A stretch of 64,000 nt of DNA, from NCBI GenBank assembly GCA_965243025.1, contig CBDETY010000003.1:4096001-4160000 (forward strand), given 5' to 3'. Numbering within the stretch: the first letter of the stretch is position 1; each line of letters begins with the position of its first letter. The position numbers and the translations under genes are program-made. Positions 885-26,846 of this stretch are shown here, piece after piece. The notes beneath the pieces were generated by a model. The model had not been told where the DNA came from and ran no database searches. It was given only the letters and a program-made list of their open reading frames with translations. The DNA comes from Candidatus Latescibacterota bacterium (GTDB lineage Bacteria; Latescibacterota; UBA2968; UBA8231).

Positions 885-1142
885 TTAGGGCTTGCATCCA
901 AGGTCGGCAAGTTGCGAGTCAATATGAGCGACACCTTTCCATTCGACCTGAGCGTAGTGGTAAACATGGGTGAAGTGAAACCGCTCGATCAAATACGTCA
1001 CTCGATTGTTGGTTCTTCCATTCTCGCACCACGGCATCTCTTTCAAGCCCCCCAGGATTCCGCGGAGGCATCTCACGTGACTTTCGAGAAGAGTTACGTT
1101 GTCACCTCGATCAAGACCCTCCTCTACTTTGACATCATTCAC
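885..1142 (-). pseudogene. Probable 3' remnant of a cassette gene
   Basis: 85-aa ORF in cassette orientation that ends at the att relic. Its 5' part overlaps the plus-strand promoter. Confidence 0.25.
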
Positions 1143-1158
1143 CCGATAGGCTTAGACT
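1129..1158 (+). promoter_or_regulatory. Sigma70-type promoter
   Basis: TTGACA (1129-1134), 18-bp spacer, TAGACT (1153-1158), directly upstream of the structured leader and CDS 1288. Confidence 0.7.
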
Positions 1159-1162
1159 TCCC

Positions 1163-1287
1163 ATCAAGTGCCTCCAGGGAGGCCCTCGGTCCGCGGTAAG
1201 GGTCCCAGACCCACCCTCCTCTCTGAAATGCAGACCTTCTTTCTGCCTGGCTTCGCGGACAACAGGCGTTTCTGAAAGAGGGTTGTC
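1163..1287 (+). ncRNA. Putative structured cis-regulatory leader RNA with a pseudoknot and sequestered RBS
   Basis: Hairpins GCCTCC/GGAGGC, GGGTC/GACCC and GCCTG/CAGGC. Long stem 1213-1231 pairs with 1266-1283 and covers the RBS. GTCCGCGG (1189-1196) is complementary to loop TCGCGGAC (1253-1260). Confidence 0.6.
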
Positions 1288-1992
1288 ATGTCTCCAGTTC
1301 TACCTCGCAATCCGCATCTCCAACCCATCAGACGCCTCGCCAAGGGGTTGCTGGGTGCGCACCAGGAGCAGACCGAAGCTGCCGGCGAACGTATTGCCGA
1401 ACACCACCCTCGGTTTTCCGGAAAAACCTCGGGGCAAGCGCTTTCCGAAGAATTCTCGCTTCAGGACGCACAGCTGGTCGTGGCGAGAGAGCACGGCCGG
1501 GCCAACTGGTCTCAGCTGGTTGGCGTGGTCGAACTGATGCGCGGAGTCCATGGGGTCTTCGTAGAGGGAAGACACGTTCATCTGGTCGCCAAGGATGCCG
1601 TCCAAATGGACGCTTTTGCAGGACTTTTGATCCCGCACTATGGGCCGGATCAATTTGGGCTTTTGGGACACTATTCTCCAGGAGAAAAGACCGAGTCTGC
1701 TCTGGGACGGTCCATCCACCTTATCTCTGAAAGCAGAGTTCTCGTCTCTGAGTACCACACCCTTGGCCTCGCCCACTTGCTTGAACACCGCCGCCGGCCA
1801 GACGGGCCGTTTGAAGTTGACAGGCTTCTCGCGCGTACACAAGCAATCGTTCCGAAATCTCTGTCCAGCAGCAGGCCGGTGCTGCTGGGCGTAAAAGAGC
1901 AGGAGGCCCAATCAGGTTTTGATGAAGTGCGCGAGATAAAAATACAACAGCTCTGCAGCCTCTACGGTTCGGTCAGCGAGGTGAATCTTTAG
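1288..1992 (+). CDS. Hypothetical protein with a small N-terminal helical domain of the type seen at the N-terminus of many ankyrin-repeat proteins
   Basis: LPRNPHLQPIRRLAKGLL...FSLQDAQLVVAREHGRANWSQL motif, RBS GAGGG. Only plus-strand gene in the array. Confidence 0.75.
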   Translation: MSPVLPRNPHLQPIRRLAKGLLGAHQEQTEAAGERIAEHHPRFSGKTSGQALSEEFSLQDAQLVVAREHGRANWSQLVGVVELMRGVHGVFVEGRHVHLVAKDAVQMDAFAGLLIPHYGPDQFGLLGHYSPGEKTESALGRSIHLISESRVLVSEYHTLGLAHLLEHRRRPDGPFEVDRLLARTQAIVPKSLSSSRPVLLGVKEQEAQSGFDEVREIKIQQLCSLYGSVSEVNL

Positions 1993-10936: not shown

Positions 10937-11344
10937 TCAGTCGGTTAAATGGTTCTCGTCCATGTCGCCTAACGTCTCCCGGTCTGCGACCCGCGCAGCC
11001 GGTTGCCGAAGGCCAACCGTGACCTTGTCGGCCTTCGCCGCCTCTCCTTGCAAACCTGGCGTATGGAGGACAAAGTGGTAATGGTCCTCGGAACAGGACA
11101 AGAACGTGTGCACCTCCCGCGGTTCGATGATGACGCCCGATTTCTCGGCAAAGTATAACTCCTCACCTTCGACAAGCATTGTGGCGTCGCCCTGCGCAAA
11201 CAGATAGATCTCGGTGGTAGTTTTATGGGAATGGGGTTCATTTATGGCGATGTTCGCATAACCGATCGAAATGTTAAGGTCTGAGTCCCAAGGCCCTACA
11301 AACCAGCCCTTGTCCATGTTTGTATCCGGCTCAATGATTCTCAC
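10937..11344 (-). CDS. Cupin-domain protein, paralogue of 19390-19725, reading through a half att site
   Basis: HxH...E...H cupin motif. About 19 differences in ~109 aa against the 19.4 kb copy (hand count). Native stop lost. Confidence 0.8.
   Translation of the reverse strand: MRIIEPDTNMDKGWFVGPWDSDLNISIGYANIAINEPHSHKTTTEIYLFAQGDATMLVEGEELYFAEKSGVIIEPREVHTFLSCSEDHYHFVLHTPGLQGEAAKADKVTVGLRQPAARVADRETLGDMDENHLTD
10967..11016. repeat. Half attC-like site (left arm only)
   Basis: GCCTAAC-GTC...CCGCGCAGCCGGTTGCCGAAGGCCAA joined directly to cupin coding sequence. Confidence 0.8.
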
Positions 11345-11373
11345 TAATTTTGCCCTCCAGCTCGTTGCATTTC

Positions 11374-11455
11374 GAATAGGTTTCGCCATGCACCAAGCGG
11401 CGAACCAGTTGGTGAAAACGCGCCAGCGCAAAAGCCGGACACGGACGTGTTATAT
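11374..11455. repeat. attC-like site
   Basis: GAATAG-GTTTCGCC...GTTATAT. The left flank is nearly identical to the flank at 19741-19761. Confidence 0.75.
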
Positions 11456-19389: not shown

Positions 19390-19725
19390 TCACGCAACCC
19401 TGACTTTGTCGTTAACCGCTGCCTCTCCCTGCAAACCTGGCGTATGGATGACAAAGTGGTAATGGTCCTCGGAACAATACAAGAACGTGTGCACCTCTCC
19501 AGGTTCGATGATGACGCCAGATTTCTCGGCAAAGCTAAACTCCTCGCCATCGACAAGCATCGTGATGTGGCCGTGCGCAAACAAATAGATTTCGGTGGTA
19601 GACCTGTGATAATGGGGTTCGTTTATGGCGGTGTTTGCATATCCGATTGAAATGTTCAGATCTGAGTCCCAAGGTCCAACAAACCAGCCCTTTTCCATTT
19701 TATTATCCGGCTCAATGATTCTCAC
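19390..19725 (-). CDS. Cupin-domain protein (cassette gene)
   Basis: PHYH...EIY...IEPGEVHTF. Confidence 0.85.
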   Translation of the reverse strand: MRIIEPDNKMEKGWFVGPWDSDLNISIGYANTAINEPHYHRSTTEIYLFAHGHITMLVDGEEFSFAEKSGVIIEPGEVHTFLYCSEDHYHFVIHTPGLQGEAAVNDKVRVA

Positions 19726-19833: not shown

Positions 19834-20406
19834 GACGTGGCTTCCCTCAACGCTCGCTGGAAATCGTCTATCGGACTCGTTCGCATGAGATGCAAGCCAG
19901 GCCTTCTTTGTCAGTAAGAACTGACGTGCTGCTTCCCCCTTGAACTTGGAACTATTGTAGACAAACCCTTCAGTCTCCTGAAAGCCGTTTTTTTCGAGGA
20001 CACGGGCTGATCCAGGATTTCGCCTTAAGCAGGCGGAGCGAACGGTTTCCATTCCGAGCTCGAGGAAGGCATACCGTAGTGCCAAAGAAACGGCCTTGGT
20101 TGTAATTCCCTTTCCCCAGTAGGCCGAGGCAATGGCGTAATCGCATTGGATGCTACCGCTCTCCAAATCACTTCCCCCTAATTCAACGACTCCTATCATC
20201 TCTCCGTCGGCAACGATGGCAAAGAAGAAACCCGCTCCGTTTCGGCGGGCATCAACGGCCTGTTCCACAAACCTTGCAGCGCCATCCTCTGGATAGGGCT
20301 CGGGAATCGTAGTGGTTCGTGCTACCCGCTCATCAGAGGCGTAACGTTGGACCGCCGGTTCGTCGCCAATCCGCAGTGGCCGGATTGTAACCTTTAGTTC
20401 TGTCAT
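19828..20406 (-). CDS. RimJ/RimL-type GNAT (cassette gene)
   Basis: YWGKGITT, NPGSARVLEKNGF. Confidence 0.9.
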   Translation of the reverse strand: MTELKVTIRPLRIGDEPAVQRYASDERVARTTTIPEPYPEDGAARFVEQAVDARRNGAGFFFAIVADGEMIGVVELGGSDLESGSIQCDYAIASAYWGKGITTKAVSLALRYAFLELGMETVRSACLRRNPGSARVLEKNGFQETEGFVYNSSKFKGEAARQFLLTKKAWLASHANESDRRFPASVEGSHVL

Positions 20407-21143
20407 CGTCTCCTTCCCATGTCCTCTAACTGATTGCCATTCACGAAGCCGCGTAGCGGCTGTCGAGGGATCTTACACTGGGCCTCAAGGTGGCGAAGAT
20501 CGTCCTGATCCAGACTGCAATCGTTGCTGTGGACGTACGAATCCAGATCCATTAGAATCAATCGATGAAAACGAGCATCCAGTGCTCTCAATCCCCACTC
20601 TCCGGCCTCTATCTTGGTGCAGAGACGGCGTTCCGCCAAGGTAAATGCAACGCGGCAAAACATCAGCGCAGGATTCTTGAAGTGGGTCCGTATCTGCGGA
20701 ACAACGTGCCGAATGCACTGCCGCAGTAAAGGCCACGGAACGCGTTTCAGAATCCTGTTGTGAGGTGTACCGAGAAGATCCCTCCCTGATTCAAAAATAT
20801 CTTGCCTCAACAAGAGAAAATCTTTGCTACCATCAGGCTTGAGGACAATTGTATTGTTCATCTTGAGAAGGAAATCAACAGGAGTGGGGAAAACGTCGGC
20901 GTTGATATGGTCTATCGTTGCTGCTGTTATGTCGTAAGACAGAGACTGTGATTTTACGTGTTCCAGGAGATGCACCCTTTTCTCCGACGGAGTGGGACGC
21001 TTCGTGACAAGAAGAAGGTCAACATCACTCGTCTCAGGATTGCCAGACTCCCGAGCGCGTGAGCCACCCATCCAAACCGATTCCAGTTCTCCTTCGTAAA
21101 TCTCACCGAGTCCCTCCACAAAGCCATCTATTGCACTTCTCAT
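20403..21143 (-). CDS. Nucleotidyltransferase, aminoglycoside adenylyltransferase (AadA/DUF4111)-like, with C-terminal read-through
   Basis: GS...SDVDLL NTase motif and CRVAFTL...TKIEAGEWGL C-terminal domain. The last ~20 aa are encoded by an att relic. Confidence 0.75.
   Translation of the reverse strand: MRSAIDGFVEGLGEIYEGELESVWMGGSRARESGNPETSDVDLLLVTKRPTPSEKRVHLLEHVKSQSLSYDITAATIDHINADVFPTPVDFLLKMNNTIVLKPDGSKDFLLLRQDIFESGRDLLGTPHNRILKRVPWPLLRQCIRHVVPQIRTHFKNPALMFCRVAFTLAERRLCTKIEAGEWGLRALDARFHRLILMDLDSYVHSNDCSLDQDDLRHLEAQCKIPRQPLRGFVNGNQLEDMGRRR
20424..20465. repeat. Half attC-like site inside the end of a CDS
   Basis: GTCCTCTAAC is the exact reverse complement of GTTAGAGGAC (19827-19836). 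It is followed by the AGCCGCGTAGCGGCT hairpin. Confidence 0.8.
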
Positions 21144-22643: not shown

Positions 22644-23219
22644 TCACTTGCGTTCAGCCATTCGATCGAAGGCATTCGGACGGCTTCGGGTGTTCCAAGC
22701 ATCGACTACAGCTGCTGCGATAGCTTCGCTCGGCTGCGTCGAGTCGACCTCCAGATCGTACTCGATGAAACTGTGAACTATGTGAAAGTCCGCTCTGGCT
22801 TCTCCAGGTCCCCGGTCTCCTCTGGTGCGCTCCCTTCGCTCTAGCTCTGAGAGCGGACAGTGCACCCCGACGACGAAAACATCAAAAGCGGAAAGAAGAT
22901 CTAACAAATCTGACAACCACTCCTCGGTCTCGACTATGTGGTCAACGATGAGATTGTTGCCTGCACCGGCCAAAACCGGAAGACAACGGTGAAACCCATC
23001 GAATACCGCTGGCCGCATGGCTGGCCAATCGAGTTCACGATTGAGTATTCGGGACCATGGCAGAGCGTTGGAATCACGCAGATGGTCAAACGAAAAATGC
23101 CAAAAAGGAACTTCCAAGGTTTGCTGGAGGAGACGTGCGAGCGTCGACTTTCCTGCACTTGATGCGCCGTTTATGAGAATGATCTTGCCCTGGTCTCGAT
23201 CGTTATCCAAGTGTATCAA
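22644..23219 (-). CDS. Chloramphenicol phosphotransferase (CPT)-like kinase (cassette gene)
   Basis: IILINGASSAGKST, GNNLIVD, VGVHCPL..LERRE..RGDR, YDLEVDST. Confidence 0.85.
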   Translation of the reverse strand: MIHLDNDRDQGKIILINGASSAGKSTLARLLQQTLEVPFWHFSFDHLRDSNALPWSRILNRELDWPAMRPAVFDGFHRCLPVLAGAGNNLIVDHIVETEEWLSDLLDLLSAFDVFVVGVHCPLSELERRERTRGDRGPGEARADFHIVHSFIEYDLEVDSTQPSEAIAAAVVDAWNTRSRPNAFDRMAERK

Positions 23220-23374: not shown

Positions 23375-24157
23375 TCAAAAAAGAATTTCGCCCCGCAGAT
23401 AGGTTACTGCCTGACCTCCGATCTCGACGCGATCTCCGCGGTCTTCACAATGCAAAACGCCACCACGCTCTGATACTTGCTTCGCCGTCATCCTATGTTT
23501 GTTTAGGCGAGTCGACCAATAAGGAATCAACGTGGTATGGGCTGAACCCGTCACTGGATCCTCGGGTATCCCCGATTGCGGAGCGAAAAATCGCGAAACG
23601 AAATCCACCTCATTCCCCGGGGCTGATACGATTATTCCGCGGGATTGAACTTGCTTGATGCGGGCAAAGTCAGGAGATAGGTTGCTAACTTCCCTCTCTG
23701 AATCGAGAATGGCGAGAAAATCAGCGCCACCTCGATAGAGTTCCAATGGTTCCCTGCCGAGCCCCTCGCAAAGATCACTTGGACAATTGTCTACCGCGGA
23801 AAACTGATCAGTTGGAAAGTCGAGCCAGATACGACCCTTTGACTGTCGCACGCGAAGGGGCCCAGACCGGGAATCGAATACAAGACTCTCTTGATTGTCC
23901 TGTTGTTCGAACAGGACATGGGCGGCGGCCAGGGTCGCGTGGCCACAAAGATCGACTTCAATCGTAGGCGTAAACCAACGAATGGAGATCGGGTCGGAGT
24001 TGCGGAATACGAAGGCAGTCTCGGCAAGGTTGTTCTCTGCGGCAATGTGCTGCATTGTGGTTTCTGGAAGTAAATCATCGCAAAGAACGATAGCAGCCGG
24101 ATTTCCTGAGAATGGCTGTTCGGAAAATGCATCGACTTGGTAAATTGGGAGTTGCAT
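23375..24157 (-). CDS. PhzF family isomerase/epimerase (first cassette)
   Basis: QVDAF...GNPAA, NLAETAF, EVDLCGHATLA, EDPVTGSAH. Confidence 0.95.
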   Translation of the reverse strand: MQLPIYQVDAFSEQPFSGNPAAIVLCDDLLPETTMQHIAAENNLAETAFVFRNSDPISIRWFTPTIEVDLCGHATLAAAHVLFEQQDNQESLVFDSRSGPLRVRQSKGRIWLDFPTDQFSAVDNCPSDLCEGLGREPLELYRGGADFLAILDSEREVSNLSPDFARIKQVQSRGIIVSAPGNEVDFVSRFFAPQSGIPEDPVTGSAHTTLIPYWSTRLNKHRMTAKQVSERGGVLHCEDRGDRVEIGGQAVTYLRGEILF

Positions 24158-24182
24158 CACCAATCCACTTCTCTTGCCCTAT

Positions 24183-24195
24183 GTCATATATCTGA
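24183..24195 (-). other. Putative attI-like junction (5' boundary of the first cassette)
   Basis: Minus-strand GATATATGAC matches the first cassette's 3' core GATATTTGAC, and no attC body lies upstream. Confidence 0.65.
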
Positions 24196-24223
24196 TTGCA
24201 TCCGAACAAATGGTTCGGATAAT
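24196..24223 (+). promoter_or_regulatory. Putative integrase promoter with an overlapping palindromic operator
   Basis: TTGCAT-16 bp-GATAAT. A perfect inverted repeat ATCCGAAC-N5-GTTCGGAT (24200-24220) fills the spacer. Confidence 0.55.
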
Positions 24224-24410
24224 GATCACTGGATGGTACTTACCTGAAACGATGGTACGTGTGGGTGTGAACATTCGCAACCATTTCTTCCGTTCGCTGG
24301 GGTCGGCCTAACTCGTTGCGACTGTGACACATAGCCCGATCTCCGATCCCTGGTGCGACTGGCACGGTTTTCTCTACGGCAGGGCTGACTTCCCACTTGG
24401 AGAAACCCGA

Positions 24411-24905
24411 ATGCGGCGCTATCGGAGACACCGCGACCTGTCCGGCGACGAAGTCGCCATCCTCAACCGGTTCGAGTCCGAGCTGAAGCTGAGGGGGTAC
24501 GCGAGGAAAACGCAGAAGTCCTACATGGGTTGCGGCCGGCGATTCCTTCAGTGGAAACGGGACTTCCGCGGCGAACGGCAGAACCAGGTGCGATCAAGCG
24601 TACAGGCCGTCGACGTGGCTGTTTCCCGGTGCCCGGGAAGGACGGCATCCACCGAACGATCGGTACAGAAAGTGTTCTCCAAGGCGGTCGCCGCCGCGGG
24701 AATCCGCAAGCGGGTGACCGTGCACACCCTGAAACACAGCTTTGCGACGCACCTGCTCGAAGGCGGGACAGATCTGCGCTTCACCCAGGAACTCCTCGGC
24801 CACAGGAGCTCGAAAACGACGGAGATCTACACCCACGTGCAGCGGAAGGACCTGGTGCGGATCGAGAGTCCGCTCGACACCCTGCTGGGCTCCGCCCGGT
24901 CCTGA
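24411..24905 (+). pseudogene. Tyrosine recombinase (integron-like integrase) pseudogene
   Basis: N-terminal [15 protein letters not shown] and C-terminal [36 protein letters not shown]...SPLD. The central region is deleted, [10 protein letters not shown]...RH (24601-24648) is out of frame, and the catalytic HxxR has become HxxK. Confidence 0.9.
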
Positions 24906-24909
24906 TCGG

Positions 24910-25788
24910 CTAACCGTCCTTCCGTTCGACGCGGACCGTGCCGTCCTCATCCACCCGCAGGTACACCTCGTCCCCCGGGGCGGAGCAGGGGCCGAACATC
25001 ACCGCCCGCTGCTCGTCGTTCATGCCGTCGACGACCTCCTCAGGCCAGTAGCGCTCGGGCCGAAAGCCCCCGCGCGAAACCCCTCTCCGGGTGGCGGTGC
25101 GGCCGGCGTACTTGAACAGGATGGAGCGCCGCTCGTGGTCGGCGTTCCACCGCAGGGTGCCGTGAGTCTGGGCCCCGTCCATGAAGAACAGCACGTCCCC
25201 CGCCCCGGCCTCCGGCTGCTCGACGACGCCCATGTCGTCGTCGCACGACCGCACTCCCGCCGGCATCGGCTCGCGCGACTTGTGACTGCCGGGAACGCAG
25301 GCGAAGCCGCCGTCCCCGGCGCTCGCGTCCGCCAGGAACCAGGAGACGGTCACCCCCTGGCAGCGGGACTCGCCGGCCTGGTGGTGGTAGCCGACGTACG
25401 GCCGGTGGGGTTCGCCGGCCCCGTGCATCACCAGACCCTCCGTTCCTTTGACGCCGCCGATGAAGTGGGGGCCGTGGTCGAACCGGAACCCGGGCCCGCA
25501 CATGGCGTTGAGCCGGGCAACGACCTGCGGGTGGGCGAGCATCTCACGGAACGGATCGCAGTGCGGCTTCTCCAGGGTCAGCAGGACCATGTCGGTCTCA
25601 ATCGCCAGCCGCTGCGAGCCGGCCAGGGCCCGCGACTGCCCGGCGGAATCCATCCCGGGATCGAGGGGGTGGTTCTGCAGGCAGAAGTCGACCGCTTCGT
25701 TGGCCCTTCGCAGCTCTTCCGGGCCGAGGACGCCCTTGACGATCAGGTACCCCGTCAGGTCCCAGAAATACCGCTCCCGATCATCCAT
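24910..25788 (-). CDS. Phytanoyl-CoA dioxygenase (PhyH) family protein
   Basis: YFWDLTGYL, FRFDHGP, GGFACVPGSHK, GDVLFF...THGT. Confidence 0.9.
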   Translation of the reverse strand: MDDRERYFWDLTGYLIVKGVLGPEELRRANEAVDFCLQNHPLDPGMDSAGQSRALAGSQRLAIETDMVLLTLEKPHCDPFREMLAHPQVVARLNAMCGPGFRFDHGPHFIGGVKGTEGLVMHGAGEPHRPYVGYHHQAGESRCQGVTVSWFLADASAGDGGFACVPGSHKSREPMPAGVRSCDDDMGVVEQPEAGAGDVLFFMDGAQTHGTLRWNADHERRSILFKYAGRTATRRGVSRGGFRPERYWPEEVVDGMNDEQRAVMFGPCSAPGDEVYLRVDEDGTVRVERKDG

Positions 25789-25964
25789 GCCGGCCTCCTG
25801 TGCGGAAACGGACCGCCCCAGCCGGGCCTGGGAGCAGGAATCGGGGGAAGAAACCGCCCCCCGATAAGGTCACCCGGATGGAAGCGCGATCGCCACCCGC
25901 GAATGAACCTGCCCGGGAAGCGTCTCCCTGGGGCGCCGGGATTGGTGCGAGCCGGGACACGGTC

Positions 25965-26846
25965 TCACCTGTGTCCGGAGACGGAAACCGTGCGCCCGTC
26001 CGACTGGAGGACCGGCAGCTTCCCGCCGGTGTGGACGCCGGGGCCGAACAGCACCGCCTGCTGCTCGGGGGTCAGCTCCTCCGTCCACTCGCCGTAGCGC
26101 TCCCGGGGCGTGAAGAAGGGCCCGACGCTGCGCGCCGCCCCCCGCGAGGCGTACTTGTAGAGGACGGACCGCCGCTCTCCGGGGCCGCGCCAGGGCAGGG
26201 TGCCGTGGGTGGCGGTCTCGGCGAAGAAGAGCACGTCCCCCGCCCGCATCTGCGGCTGCACGACCAGCCCCATGTCGTCCTCTGCCGAGCGCACCTCCGC
26301 GGGGGTTGGCTCCCGCGACTTGTGGCTTCCCGGGACGATGGCGAAACCGCCGGCGCCGGCTTCGACGTCGGTGAGCTGCCAAGCGACGGTGACGCCGCGG
26401 CAGTAGATGCGGCCGTTCTGGTGGTGATACCAGGTCGCCGCAGCGAACGGCTCTCCGGCCCCGTGGAGGGCGTGCCCCTCGGTGCCGGGGGCGGCGGCGA
26501 TCAGGGTGGGTCCGTGGTCGAGGCGGAAGCCGCGGCCGCTGATCTCGTTCAGCCGCGACACCACCACGGGGTGGACGAGCAGCCTGCGGAACGGCTCGCG
26601 CCAGGGCGCCGGCCACCCGAGCATTCCGGTGAGCTCGCGCCGGCCGCGGTTGCCCCGGAGCGCCTGCGAGCCGCGGGCGAGGCCGCCTCCCTCGACGGAG
26701 CGCTCCGTAATCTGCCCGGCGAAGCGGTCGATGGCGGCGTTGCACCCGGCTGTCTCCTCCGCGGTCAGGACATCCCGCACCACGAGGTACCCCCGCAGGT
26801 CGAAGTAGTACTTCTCCTCGGCGGTCATCCGGCAGCGGTCGCTCAT
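25965..26846 (-). CDS. Phytanoyl-CoA dioxygenase (PhyH) family protein, tandem paralogue
   Basis: YYFDLRGYL, FRLDHGP, GGFAIVPGSHK, GDVLFF...THGT. Confidence 0.9.
   Translation of the reverse strand: MSDRCRMTAEEKYYFDLRGYLVVRDVLTAEETAGCNAAIDRFAGQITERSVEGGGLARGSQALRGNRGRRELTGMLGWPAPWREPFRRLLVHPVVVSRLNEISGRGFRLDHGPTLIAAAPGTEGHALHGAGEPFAAATWYHHQNGRIYCRGVTVAWQLTDVEAGAGGFAIVPGSHKSREPTPAEVRSAEDDMGLVVQPQMRAGDVLFFAETATHGTLPWRGPGERRSVLYKYASRGAARSVGPFFTPRERYGEWTEELTPEQQAVLFGPGVHTGGKLPVLQSDGRTVSVSGHR

Follow-up and report, generated by a model that had tools for sequence, protein, structure and literature searches.

Within a 64,000-nucleotide (nt) stretch of DNA from a Candidatus Latescibacterota bacterium (contig CBDETY010000003.1, positions 4,096,001 to 4,160,000 of the forward strand; this whole stretch is referred to below as the window), a 125-nt leader RNA lies between a promoter and the start codon of a gene for a 234-amino-acid protein. 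This leader is probably a new translation control switch. Comparison with leaders from other bacteria indicates that it is a real, conserved, structured RNA made of four helices and two pseudoknots, and the gene behind it opens with a small helical domain that is its companion family-wide. With confidence just short of even, we read the leader as a new cis-acting translational operator, putatively closed by the gene's own N-terminal domain in an autogenous feedback. Its strongest competitor is a riboswitch for a small molecule or ion, and next comes a standing brake on translation in which the domain plays no part. An initial annotation made from the letters of the window had proposed a structured, pseudoknotted leader tied to an N-terminal module, and this interpretation is partly supported by the analysis presented here. 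The features of the window copy are as follows.

1129-1158, + strand: sigma-70-like promoter (-35 element TTGACA at 1129-1134, 18-nt spacer, -10 element TAGACT at 1153-1158)
About 1165-1166, + strand: predicted transcript start
1166-1290, + strand: leader RNA of 125 nt, a complete family member that ends with the start codon
1288-1992, + strand: open reading frame (ORF) of 234 amino acids, with its ATG at 1288 and the stop codon included
1288-1545, + strand: coding region of the N-terminal helical domain (residues 1-86), the leader's companion throughout the family
1546-1992, + strand: rare C-terminal alpha/beta domain (residues 87-234) plus the stop codon

The leader RNA and its covariation

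The roughly 125 nt upstream of genes for this domain are more alike than the proteins that they precede. Leaders were compared by means of a covariance model, R1, built from 23 leaders with 128 positions and 22 nested pairs, the pseudoknots being left out of the model. The window leader matches R1 at 106.2 bits (E = 1.6e-26) and is the only R1 match in its own 6.8-Mb genome, as judged in a first look that scored the best 150 of 2860 candidates. Folded as a single sequence, it reaches -44 kcal/mol with a z of -0.05, 100 of 200 shuffles folding as well, and the antisense strand gives a z of +0.64. Since single-sequence folding energy is uninformative here, the evidence that goes beyond chance is comparative. 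The parts of the RNA are given below at their positions in the window copy, all on the + strand, together with their behavior across the family; a cell is one modelled pair in one aligned sequence.

1170-1174 (GCCUC) with 1179-1183 (GAGGC): hairpin P1; 4 of 4 modelled pairs change on both sides, and 93-96% of cells pair
1176-1179 (AGGG, in the P1 loop) with 1214-1217 (CCCU, immediately 3' of P2): pseudoknot PK2; the inner 4 pairs covary
1189-1194 (GUCCGC) with 1255-1260 (GCGGAC, in the P4 loop): pseudoknot PK1
1200-1204 (GGGUC) with 1208-1212 (GACCC): hairpin P2; 4 of 4 modelled pairs change on both sides, and 98-99% of cells pair
1218-1233: linker of variable length
1234-1243 (ACCUUCUUUC) with 1274-1283 (GAAAGAGGGU): helix P3, which encloses P4 and holds the Shine-Dalgarno (SD) sequence at about 1277-1282; 95-97% of cells pair, and 4-5 of 8 pairs change on both sides
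1245-1249 (GCCUG) with 1263-1267 (CAGGC): hairpin P4, whose loop contains the 3' strand of PK1; 98% of cells pair

Across 99 leader sequences, 94.6% of 3207 cells form standard pairs, a share that drops to 37-53% once the partners on the 3' side are slid by 1-3 columns. Changes on both sides occur at 23 of 33 pairs (9-13 when slid), and the covariation score is 0.259 (at most 0.107 when slid). None of 500 shuffles reached the observed values, counts that are no probabilities given that the sequences are kin. Because 74 of the 99 sequences had been picked by a DNA pattern that fixes PK1 and part of P3, the count was repeated on 42 distinct sequences from related genomes, found by protein or by model and with no choice by the DNA pattern. 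There, 91.9% of cells pair (42-54% when slid), 23 of 34 pairs change on both sides, and the covariation score is 0.314 as opposed to at most 0.147 when slid.

Because R1 aligned the sequences to its nested helices, the counts for these helices lean towards them; the pseudoknots, being absent from R1, are more independent evidence. The 6-bp core of PK1 (GUCCGC/GCGGAC) is paired in 97.6-99.5% of cells, the figure for the 42-sequence set being 97.6%. In that set a U-A pair becomes C-G in three sequences and a G-C pair becomes A-U in one, two positions changing on both sides, and a compensatory GUCCAC/GUGGAC is found at one locus in place of the GUCCGC/GCGGAC present elsewhere. The inner part of PK2 covaries strongly among the same 42 sequences, one pair being A-U in 28 and G-C in 9, and another G-C in 13, A-U in 8 and C-G in 6. 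The outer two pairs tried for PK2 were unsupported in these sequences and were rejected. Within P4, one pair is U-A in 49 and C-G in 37 of the 99 sequences.

The conserved blocks of the family are GUCCGC, AAGG, CCACC, CUUCUUUC, GCGGAC and the SD sequence GAAAGAGG, and the nucleotides GCC.CC, GG.AAGG and CCACC at the junctions are strongly conserved. P3 pairs the SD sequence with the conserved CUUCUUUC strand, and the minimum-energy fold of the window copy contains this helix. The ensemble probability of SD pairing is 0.97 in the window copy and has a median of 0.96 in 42 leaders, falling to 0.68 when the upstream part is shuffled. Pairing of the CUUCUUUC strand with purine-rich segments in the P1 loop or P2 appears possible in the raw pair matrix; by eye, variants of the SD and anti-SD sequences go unmatched there, and we make no claim for it.

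The position of the promoter is also part of the family pattern. A promoter-like site with at least 9 of 12 consensus matches ends 2-9 nt before the start of the model in 41 of 99 leaders, compared with 8 of 495 control windows. The element therefore spans the stretch from the predicted transcript start to the start codon. Half of the leaders (21 of 42) have no upstream ATG, indicating that a leader peptide is not the conserved feature, and a conserved leader peptide was rejected for this reason.

Much of what the initial annotation had drawn in the window copy agrees with this structure. Its promoter before the ATG matches 10 of 12 consensus positions and is the sole such site in 700-2300, where shuffles average 0.6, and its three short hairpins are P1 (1170-1183), P2 (1200-1212) and P4 (1245-1267), all kept by compensatory changes. 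It had asked for a covarying structure upstream of homologues of the N-terminal domain, and the four helices and two pseudoknots described above are that structure. The ribosome-binding site (RBS) is indeed buried as it had proposed, by P3 and not by the long stem that it had assigned to 1213-1231 with 1266-1283. That stem can be drawn in the window copy; with a 5' strand that falls in the linker of variable length, and being incompatible with both P4 and PK2, it was rejected as a feature of the family. The 8-bp pseudoknot that it had noted, GUCCGCGG (1189-1196) with UCGCGGAC (1253-1260), is present in full, since the window copy extends PK1 by GG at 1195-1196 with UC at 1253-1254, and only the 6-bp core without these two extra pairs is conserved across the family. 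PK2, which in the window copy overlaps the last P1 pair, had been missed.

Association of the RNA with an N-terminal domain

A degenerate DNA pattern with three conserved blocks, run on contigs of one genome per species, retrieved at least 113 stretches. According to the record titles, the matches listed belong to several classes of Acidobacteriota and to Gemmatimonadota, Planctomycetota, Chloroflexota, Eremiobacterota, Actinomycetota (Amycolatopsis, Actinopolymorpha), Armatimonadota (Chthonomonadales) and Pseudomonadota (Nevskia, Steroidobacteraceae, Parvularculaceae). R1 matches 99 of 100 fetched loci and misses L067, a chance match of the pattern before a tRNA methyltransferase gene. In 27 of 61 related genomes R1 finds the RNA, with up to 16 copies per genome. 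The leader also stands directly before the gene in 6 of 6 named records found by protein: Gemmatirosa kalamazoonensis (NZ_CP007129.1), Methylosinus sp. C49 (NZ_AP022334.1), Variovorax paradoxus (CP063167.1), Nonomuraea gerenzanensis (NZ_LT559118.1), Ancylobacter polymorphus (NZ_CP083240.1) and Burkholderia cenocepacia (NZ_CP091013.1). A plasmid collection gave no match by blastn with the leader or by tblastn with the short form of the domain, and a collection of viral contigs gave a single pattern match, implying that the element is not phage-specific. This viral-classed copy (IMGVR_UViG_3300036904_000151, 579-710, + strand) has a leader scoring 78 bits followed by an N-terminal domain gene at the end of a 9.5-kb contig, and may be host DNA or the edge of a prophage.

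A profile of the domain (alignment A4) was searched within 500 nt downstream of each leader. Among the matches listed, the domain follows 108 of 113 leaders found by the pattern; the five without it are the chance match L067, a leader after which the contig ends within 22 nt (L101), two that look decayed (L041, L064) and L084, which is intact and is taken up below. For 29 leaders found by R1 in related genomes, the domain follows 24, three decayed frames keep its first residues, and the remaining two are an ankyrin-only case (L170) and a degenerate one. Conversely, 24 of 29 loci found by protein in these relatives have a full-length R1 match that ends at the start codon. In the five genomes reached through the named loci, a domain gene stands behind 13 of 14 leaders (adjacency taken from two tables), and a leader is present at 13 of 18 domain genes.

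What follows the domain varies. Of 65 downstream proteins, 58 have ankyrin repeats, two have leucine-rich repeats (LRR), one has HEAT repeats, one is an acyltransferase, two have no recognized partner and one belongs to the chance locus. The leader thus accompanies the domain irrespective of the C-terminal fusion. The initial annotation had placed similar leaders before genes with a shared N-terminal module and varied C-termini, and this proved right; the CATCAA and CTCGGT blocks that it had also given are not conserved.

The N-terminal domain is modelled by AlphaFold2 as five helices (predicted local distance difference test [pLDDT] 91, predicted template-modelling score [pTM] 0.80). At E ≤ 0.001 its profile matches 10,370 cluster representatives (clusters of 50% identity), of which 5,517 remain at E ≤ 1e-10; among the best 150 of the 10,370 the domain is almost always at the extreme N-terminus, often with two or three matched stretches. 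A unit of the form AQ..IAR..GF.SW often occurs in tandem after the N-terminal copy (P0013-P0162; L055; G061:C10:35929-36312). The domain is basic, with a median isoelectric point (pI) of 9.75, a net charge of +4 (n = 44) and conserved Arg/Lys columns, and in complete family proteins the rest of the chain is acidic (median pI 5.6, n = 32). Foldseek on PDB found no structure at E ≤ 0.001 (best E 2.8), the wide VIA search reached a best Z of 3.8, and a PDB sequence profile gave only a weak match, to 9s82 'JUBO2' (E = 0.0023).

Two families share with this domain a helix with an AQ..IAR..GF..W motif in their N-terminal parts. The first ~60-85 positions of PF20066 (Glyoxalase_8) are weakly matched by 22 of 44 N-terminal domains (best E 0.0026), and positions 9-58 of PRK05973, an NCBIfam DNA helicase, by one Amycolatopsis member (E = 6e-7). 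None of these matches reaches a curated cut-off, and the N-terminal domain proteins lack the glyoxalase and helicase bodies. Membership in PF20066 was rejected, the gathering cut-off of 23.7 bits not being reached and the domain of the window giving no match.

The window protein is an unusual member by its C-terminus. It has no Pfam match at E ≤ 0.1, hence no matches to ankyrin repeats, and none in NCBIfam, and has seven full-length relatives among 5.8 billion proteins. In its own genome and 60 relatives, three homologues are full-length (54, 50 and 28% identity) and dozens match residues 1 to ~85 only and carry other C-termini. The rare alpha/beta domain that forms its last ~150 residues is unusual among the C-termini of the family. 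This domain (1546-1989) has a predicted beta-alpha-beta fold without a P-loop motif, one of five whole-protein models being confident; it weakly resembles the motor lobes of SF2 helicases and SecA (Foldseek E 0.017-0.1), and the Atlas gives ResIII at 0.77, similarities that agree with one another and are leads only.

How the leader could act

In the mechanism that we propose, the closed leader fold would keep translation low by limiting initiation. The basic N-terminal domain, perhaps during its synthesis from its own mRNA, would bind the knotted 5' part and lock P3 shut, each family member carrying negative feedback on its own synthesis, possibly in cis. The association of leader and gene that is expected of an autogenous operator is found, with two exceptions (L084, L170), and the basicity of the domain within otherwise acidic proteins, together with an RNA that follows the domain, is consistent with self-binding and is no proof of it. 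More tentatively, and with doubt outweighing confidence, we propose that leader and domain together form a portable RNA-protein feedback cassette, in which the nascent domain would bind the double pseudoknot in cis and shut the RBS. If this is true, any protein fused behind the domain, be it an ankyrin, LRR or HEAT protein or an enzyme, would inherit dosage control, and a new RNA-binding domain with its cognate RNA would be present in at least eight bacterial phyla and thousands of genes.

Several observations weigh against autogenous binding. Two leaders are intact and precede genes that lack the domain: L084 (1472-1603, - strand), before an ankyrin protein, and L170 (1501-1636, + strand), before a 75-residue ankyrin-only protein. 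These are the informative exceptions for choosing between self-binding and a riboswitch. Domain genes without a leader also occur. They make up 5 of the 18 domain genes in the five genomes reached through named loci, and 5 of the 29 protein-found loci in relatives have no adjoining full leader: at L027 the R1 match lies ~1 kb upstream before another frame, at L007 only the 3' half of the model matches, and at L014, L016 and L023 there is no R1 match. The two other N-terminal domain genes of the window's own genome (L002, L003) likewise gave no R1 match, including with filters off. The domain has no recognized RNA-binding fold among solved structures. Unpaired nucleotides of the leader are conserved across many phyla, as one would sooner expect of a metabolite aptamer. 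A conserved pairing for an open state was not found, leaving the opening of the closed hairpin unaccounted for. Finally, common descent of the 5' module could hold RNA and domain together without physical contact.

Some of these points favor a riboswitch, a reading that we consider somewhat unlikely. Here the 5' part with its double pseudoknot would be an aptamer for a small molecule or ion, the ligand fixing or releasing P3, and the domain would be tied to the RNA only through a ligand-related function or shared descent. As expected of an aptamer, the leader is compact, structured and conserved: several helices and two pseudoknots covary, the nucleotides at the junctions are strongly conserved, and the SD sequence is part of the conserved structure. 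The spread over eight phyla and a copy number of up to 16 per genome, much like that of second-messenger riboswitches, fit as well, and so do the leaders of L084 and L170 before genes without the domain. Against this, a single protein family lies downstream, with no transporter and no enzyme of biosynthesis or degradation among its members to hint at a metabolite, and the gene context suggests no candidate ligand. The RNA matches no Rfam aptamer class. Where an expression platform would be expected, the SD sequence is sequestered in P3 and PK1 ties the P4 loop to the 5' part, and no conserved alternative pairing of the typical kind was found.

Less probable still, and unlikely in our view, is a standing brake or target of a general factor, in which a stable P3/P4 hairpin would silence the gene until opened or cut by temperature, an RNA helicase, an RNase, a small RNA or another general RNA-binding protein, the N-terminal domain playing no part. 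By itself the P3/P4 hairpin is indeed very stable (median -20.4 kcal/mol) and the SD sequence is paired by default; the failure to find a conserved open-state pairing and the retention of the RNA before two genes without the domain also agree with a brake. A simple thermometer or brake, however, needs the hairpin only, yet the upstream P1, P2 and both pseudoknots are conserved and covary. A general factor should moreover serve several unrelated gene families, and none such is seen; to our knowledge, the carrier phyla have few RNA-binding regulators in common, which also counts against it. Autogenous binding by the N-terminal domain remains the reading that we prefer. Since the RNA occurs in cultured, tractable bacteria (Variovorax paradoxus, Methylosinus, Ancylobacter, Amycolatopsis and Nonomuraea), it is directly testable.

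Cassette setting and relation to known systems

The first ~24 kb of the window have 52-60% G+C compared with 65-72% for the remainder. This low-GC part is a chromosomal, integron-like cassette array, in which about 28 small genes lie on the same strand (1992-24163, - strand), separated by repeated attC-like intergenic sequences. They encode, among others, several GNATs, an isochorismatase, HAD, NUDIX and histidine phosphatase proteins, an alpha/beta hydrolase, an S41 peptidase, a cupin, PhzF, a kinase like chloramphenicol phosphotransferase (CPT) and an AadA_C-like protein. The inner end of the array is marked by a jump in G+C at ~24000-26000, which suggests that the array is foreign to the host chromosome, and by the following feature.

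24324-24905, + strand: remnant of an integron integrase, a 193-residue ORF matching only positions 238-315, the last 78, of TIGR02249 (103.7 bits, cut-off 265)

Two cassettes resemble genes for antibiotic-modifying enzymes by their sequence matches, namely an AadA_C-like nucleotidyltransferase C-terminal domain (E = 4e-7) at 20403-21143 and a chloramphenicol-phosphotransferase-like protein (E = 2e-46) at 22644-23219, both on the - strand. A direct repeat of 300 nt and 85% identity (11014-11313 and 19395-19694) lies inside the ORFs 10937-11431 and 19390-19725, which appear to be a duplicated or paralogous cassette.

The leader and its gene are near the far end of this array, in opposite orientation and with their own promoter, the gene being on the + strand and the array genes on the - strand, as the initial annotation had it when it called the module oriented against the array. 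From this setting, the leader gene appears to have arrived on a low-GC integron cassette, which would explain a single, low-GC copy of the leader in a high-GC genome. The same setting, with attC-like repeats around the window copy, would suit a role at the level of DNA, either as a recombination site akin to the neighboring attC sites or as the operator of a DNA-binding protein. We regard such a role as very improbable. More than 100 other copies lie outside such arrays, with a fixed distance between promoter-like site and start codon; the crossing pairings of the pseudoknots covary; and the 3' helix is built around the SD sequence. In addition, G-U pairs are common on one strand only, the sense strand (for instance U-A in 63 and U-G in 31 sequences at one P3 pair), so that pairs are kept via wobbles that would be A-C mismatches on the opposite strand. 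Integron cassettes in reverse orientation with a promoter of their own are known, for example the toxin-antitoxin cassettes of chromosomal integrons. The window gene is alike in running against a same-strand array from its own promoter and differs in that its leader family as a whole is not integron-borne.

A cmscan with Rfam 15 (4227 models) under permissive filters gave no match within 1129-1290 at E ≤ 10; for 14 further loci, the leaders were likewise without a match, at E ≤ 1. The initial annotation had assigned no named RNA family. In the searchable literature we found no paper that connects a leader RNA with ankyrin genes; 'ankyrin' does not occur in the main texts of PMC11109978, PMC5737381, PMC2864571, PMC6429828, PMC8632094 and bioRxiv 10.64898/2026.10.21.760802, whose supplementary lists could hold the motif under another name. 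We consider the element a new RNA family, large and phylogenetically broad, of a known general kind, the structured translational leader. Unusually for a regulatory RNA, it is carried along with a protein domain through many gene fusions, and the near-obligate pairing of the two, with a domain that mostly heads bacterial ankyrin-repeat proteins, gives a hypothesis for both orphans. Either the domain would be a new RNA-binding domain and the leader its operator, or the leader would represent a new class of riboswitch, one that reveals what these proteins respond to.

Each of these two outcomes has known counterparts. Autogenous operators with a pseudoknot include the Escherichia coli rpsO (S15) leader, leaders of other ribosomal protein genes such as that of L20, and the phage T4 gene 32 leader. 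Like them, the present RNA is a structured, pseudoknotted 5' leader at the RBS, placed before the gene of its presumed effector. Unlike in these systems, the presumed partner is an uncharacterized 85-residue domain without a known RNA-binding fold, fused to varied C-termini and found in as many as 16 paralogues within one genome; the leader has no rRNA or other natural RNA target to imitate, the spread covers many phyla, and the binding is putative. Pseudoknot riboswitches that hide the SD sequence include SAM-II (RF00521), preQ1-II, guanidine-III and ZTP. The leader has in common with them a compact pseudoknotted fold, conserved unpaired nucleotides, an SD sequence within the structure and a wide spread, and differs in being about twice their size, in having two pseudoknots and in preceding one protein family instead of the genes of a metabolic pathway.

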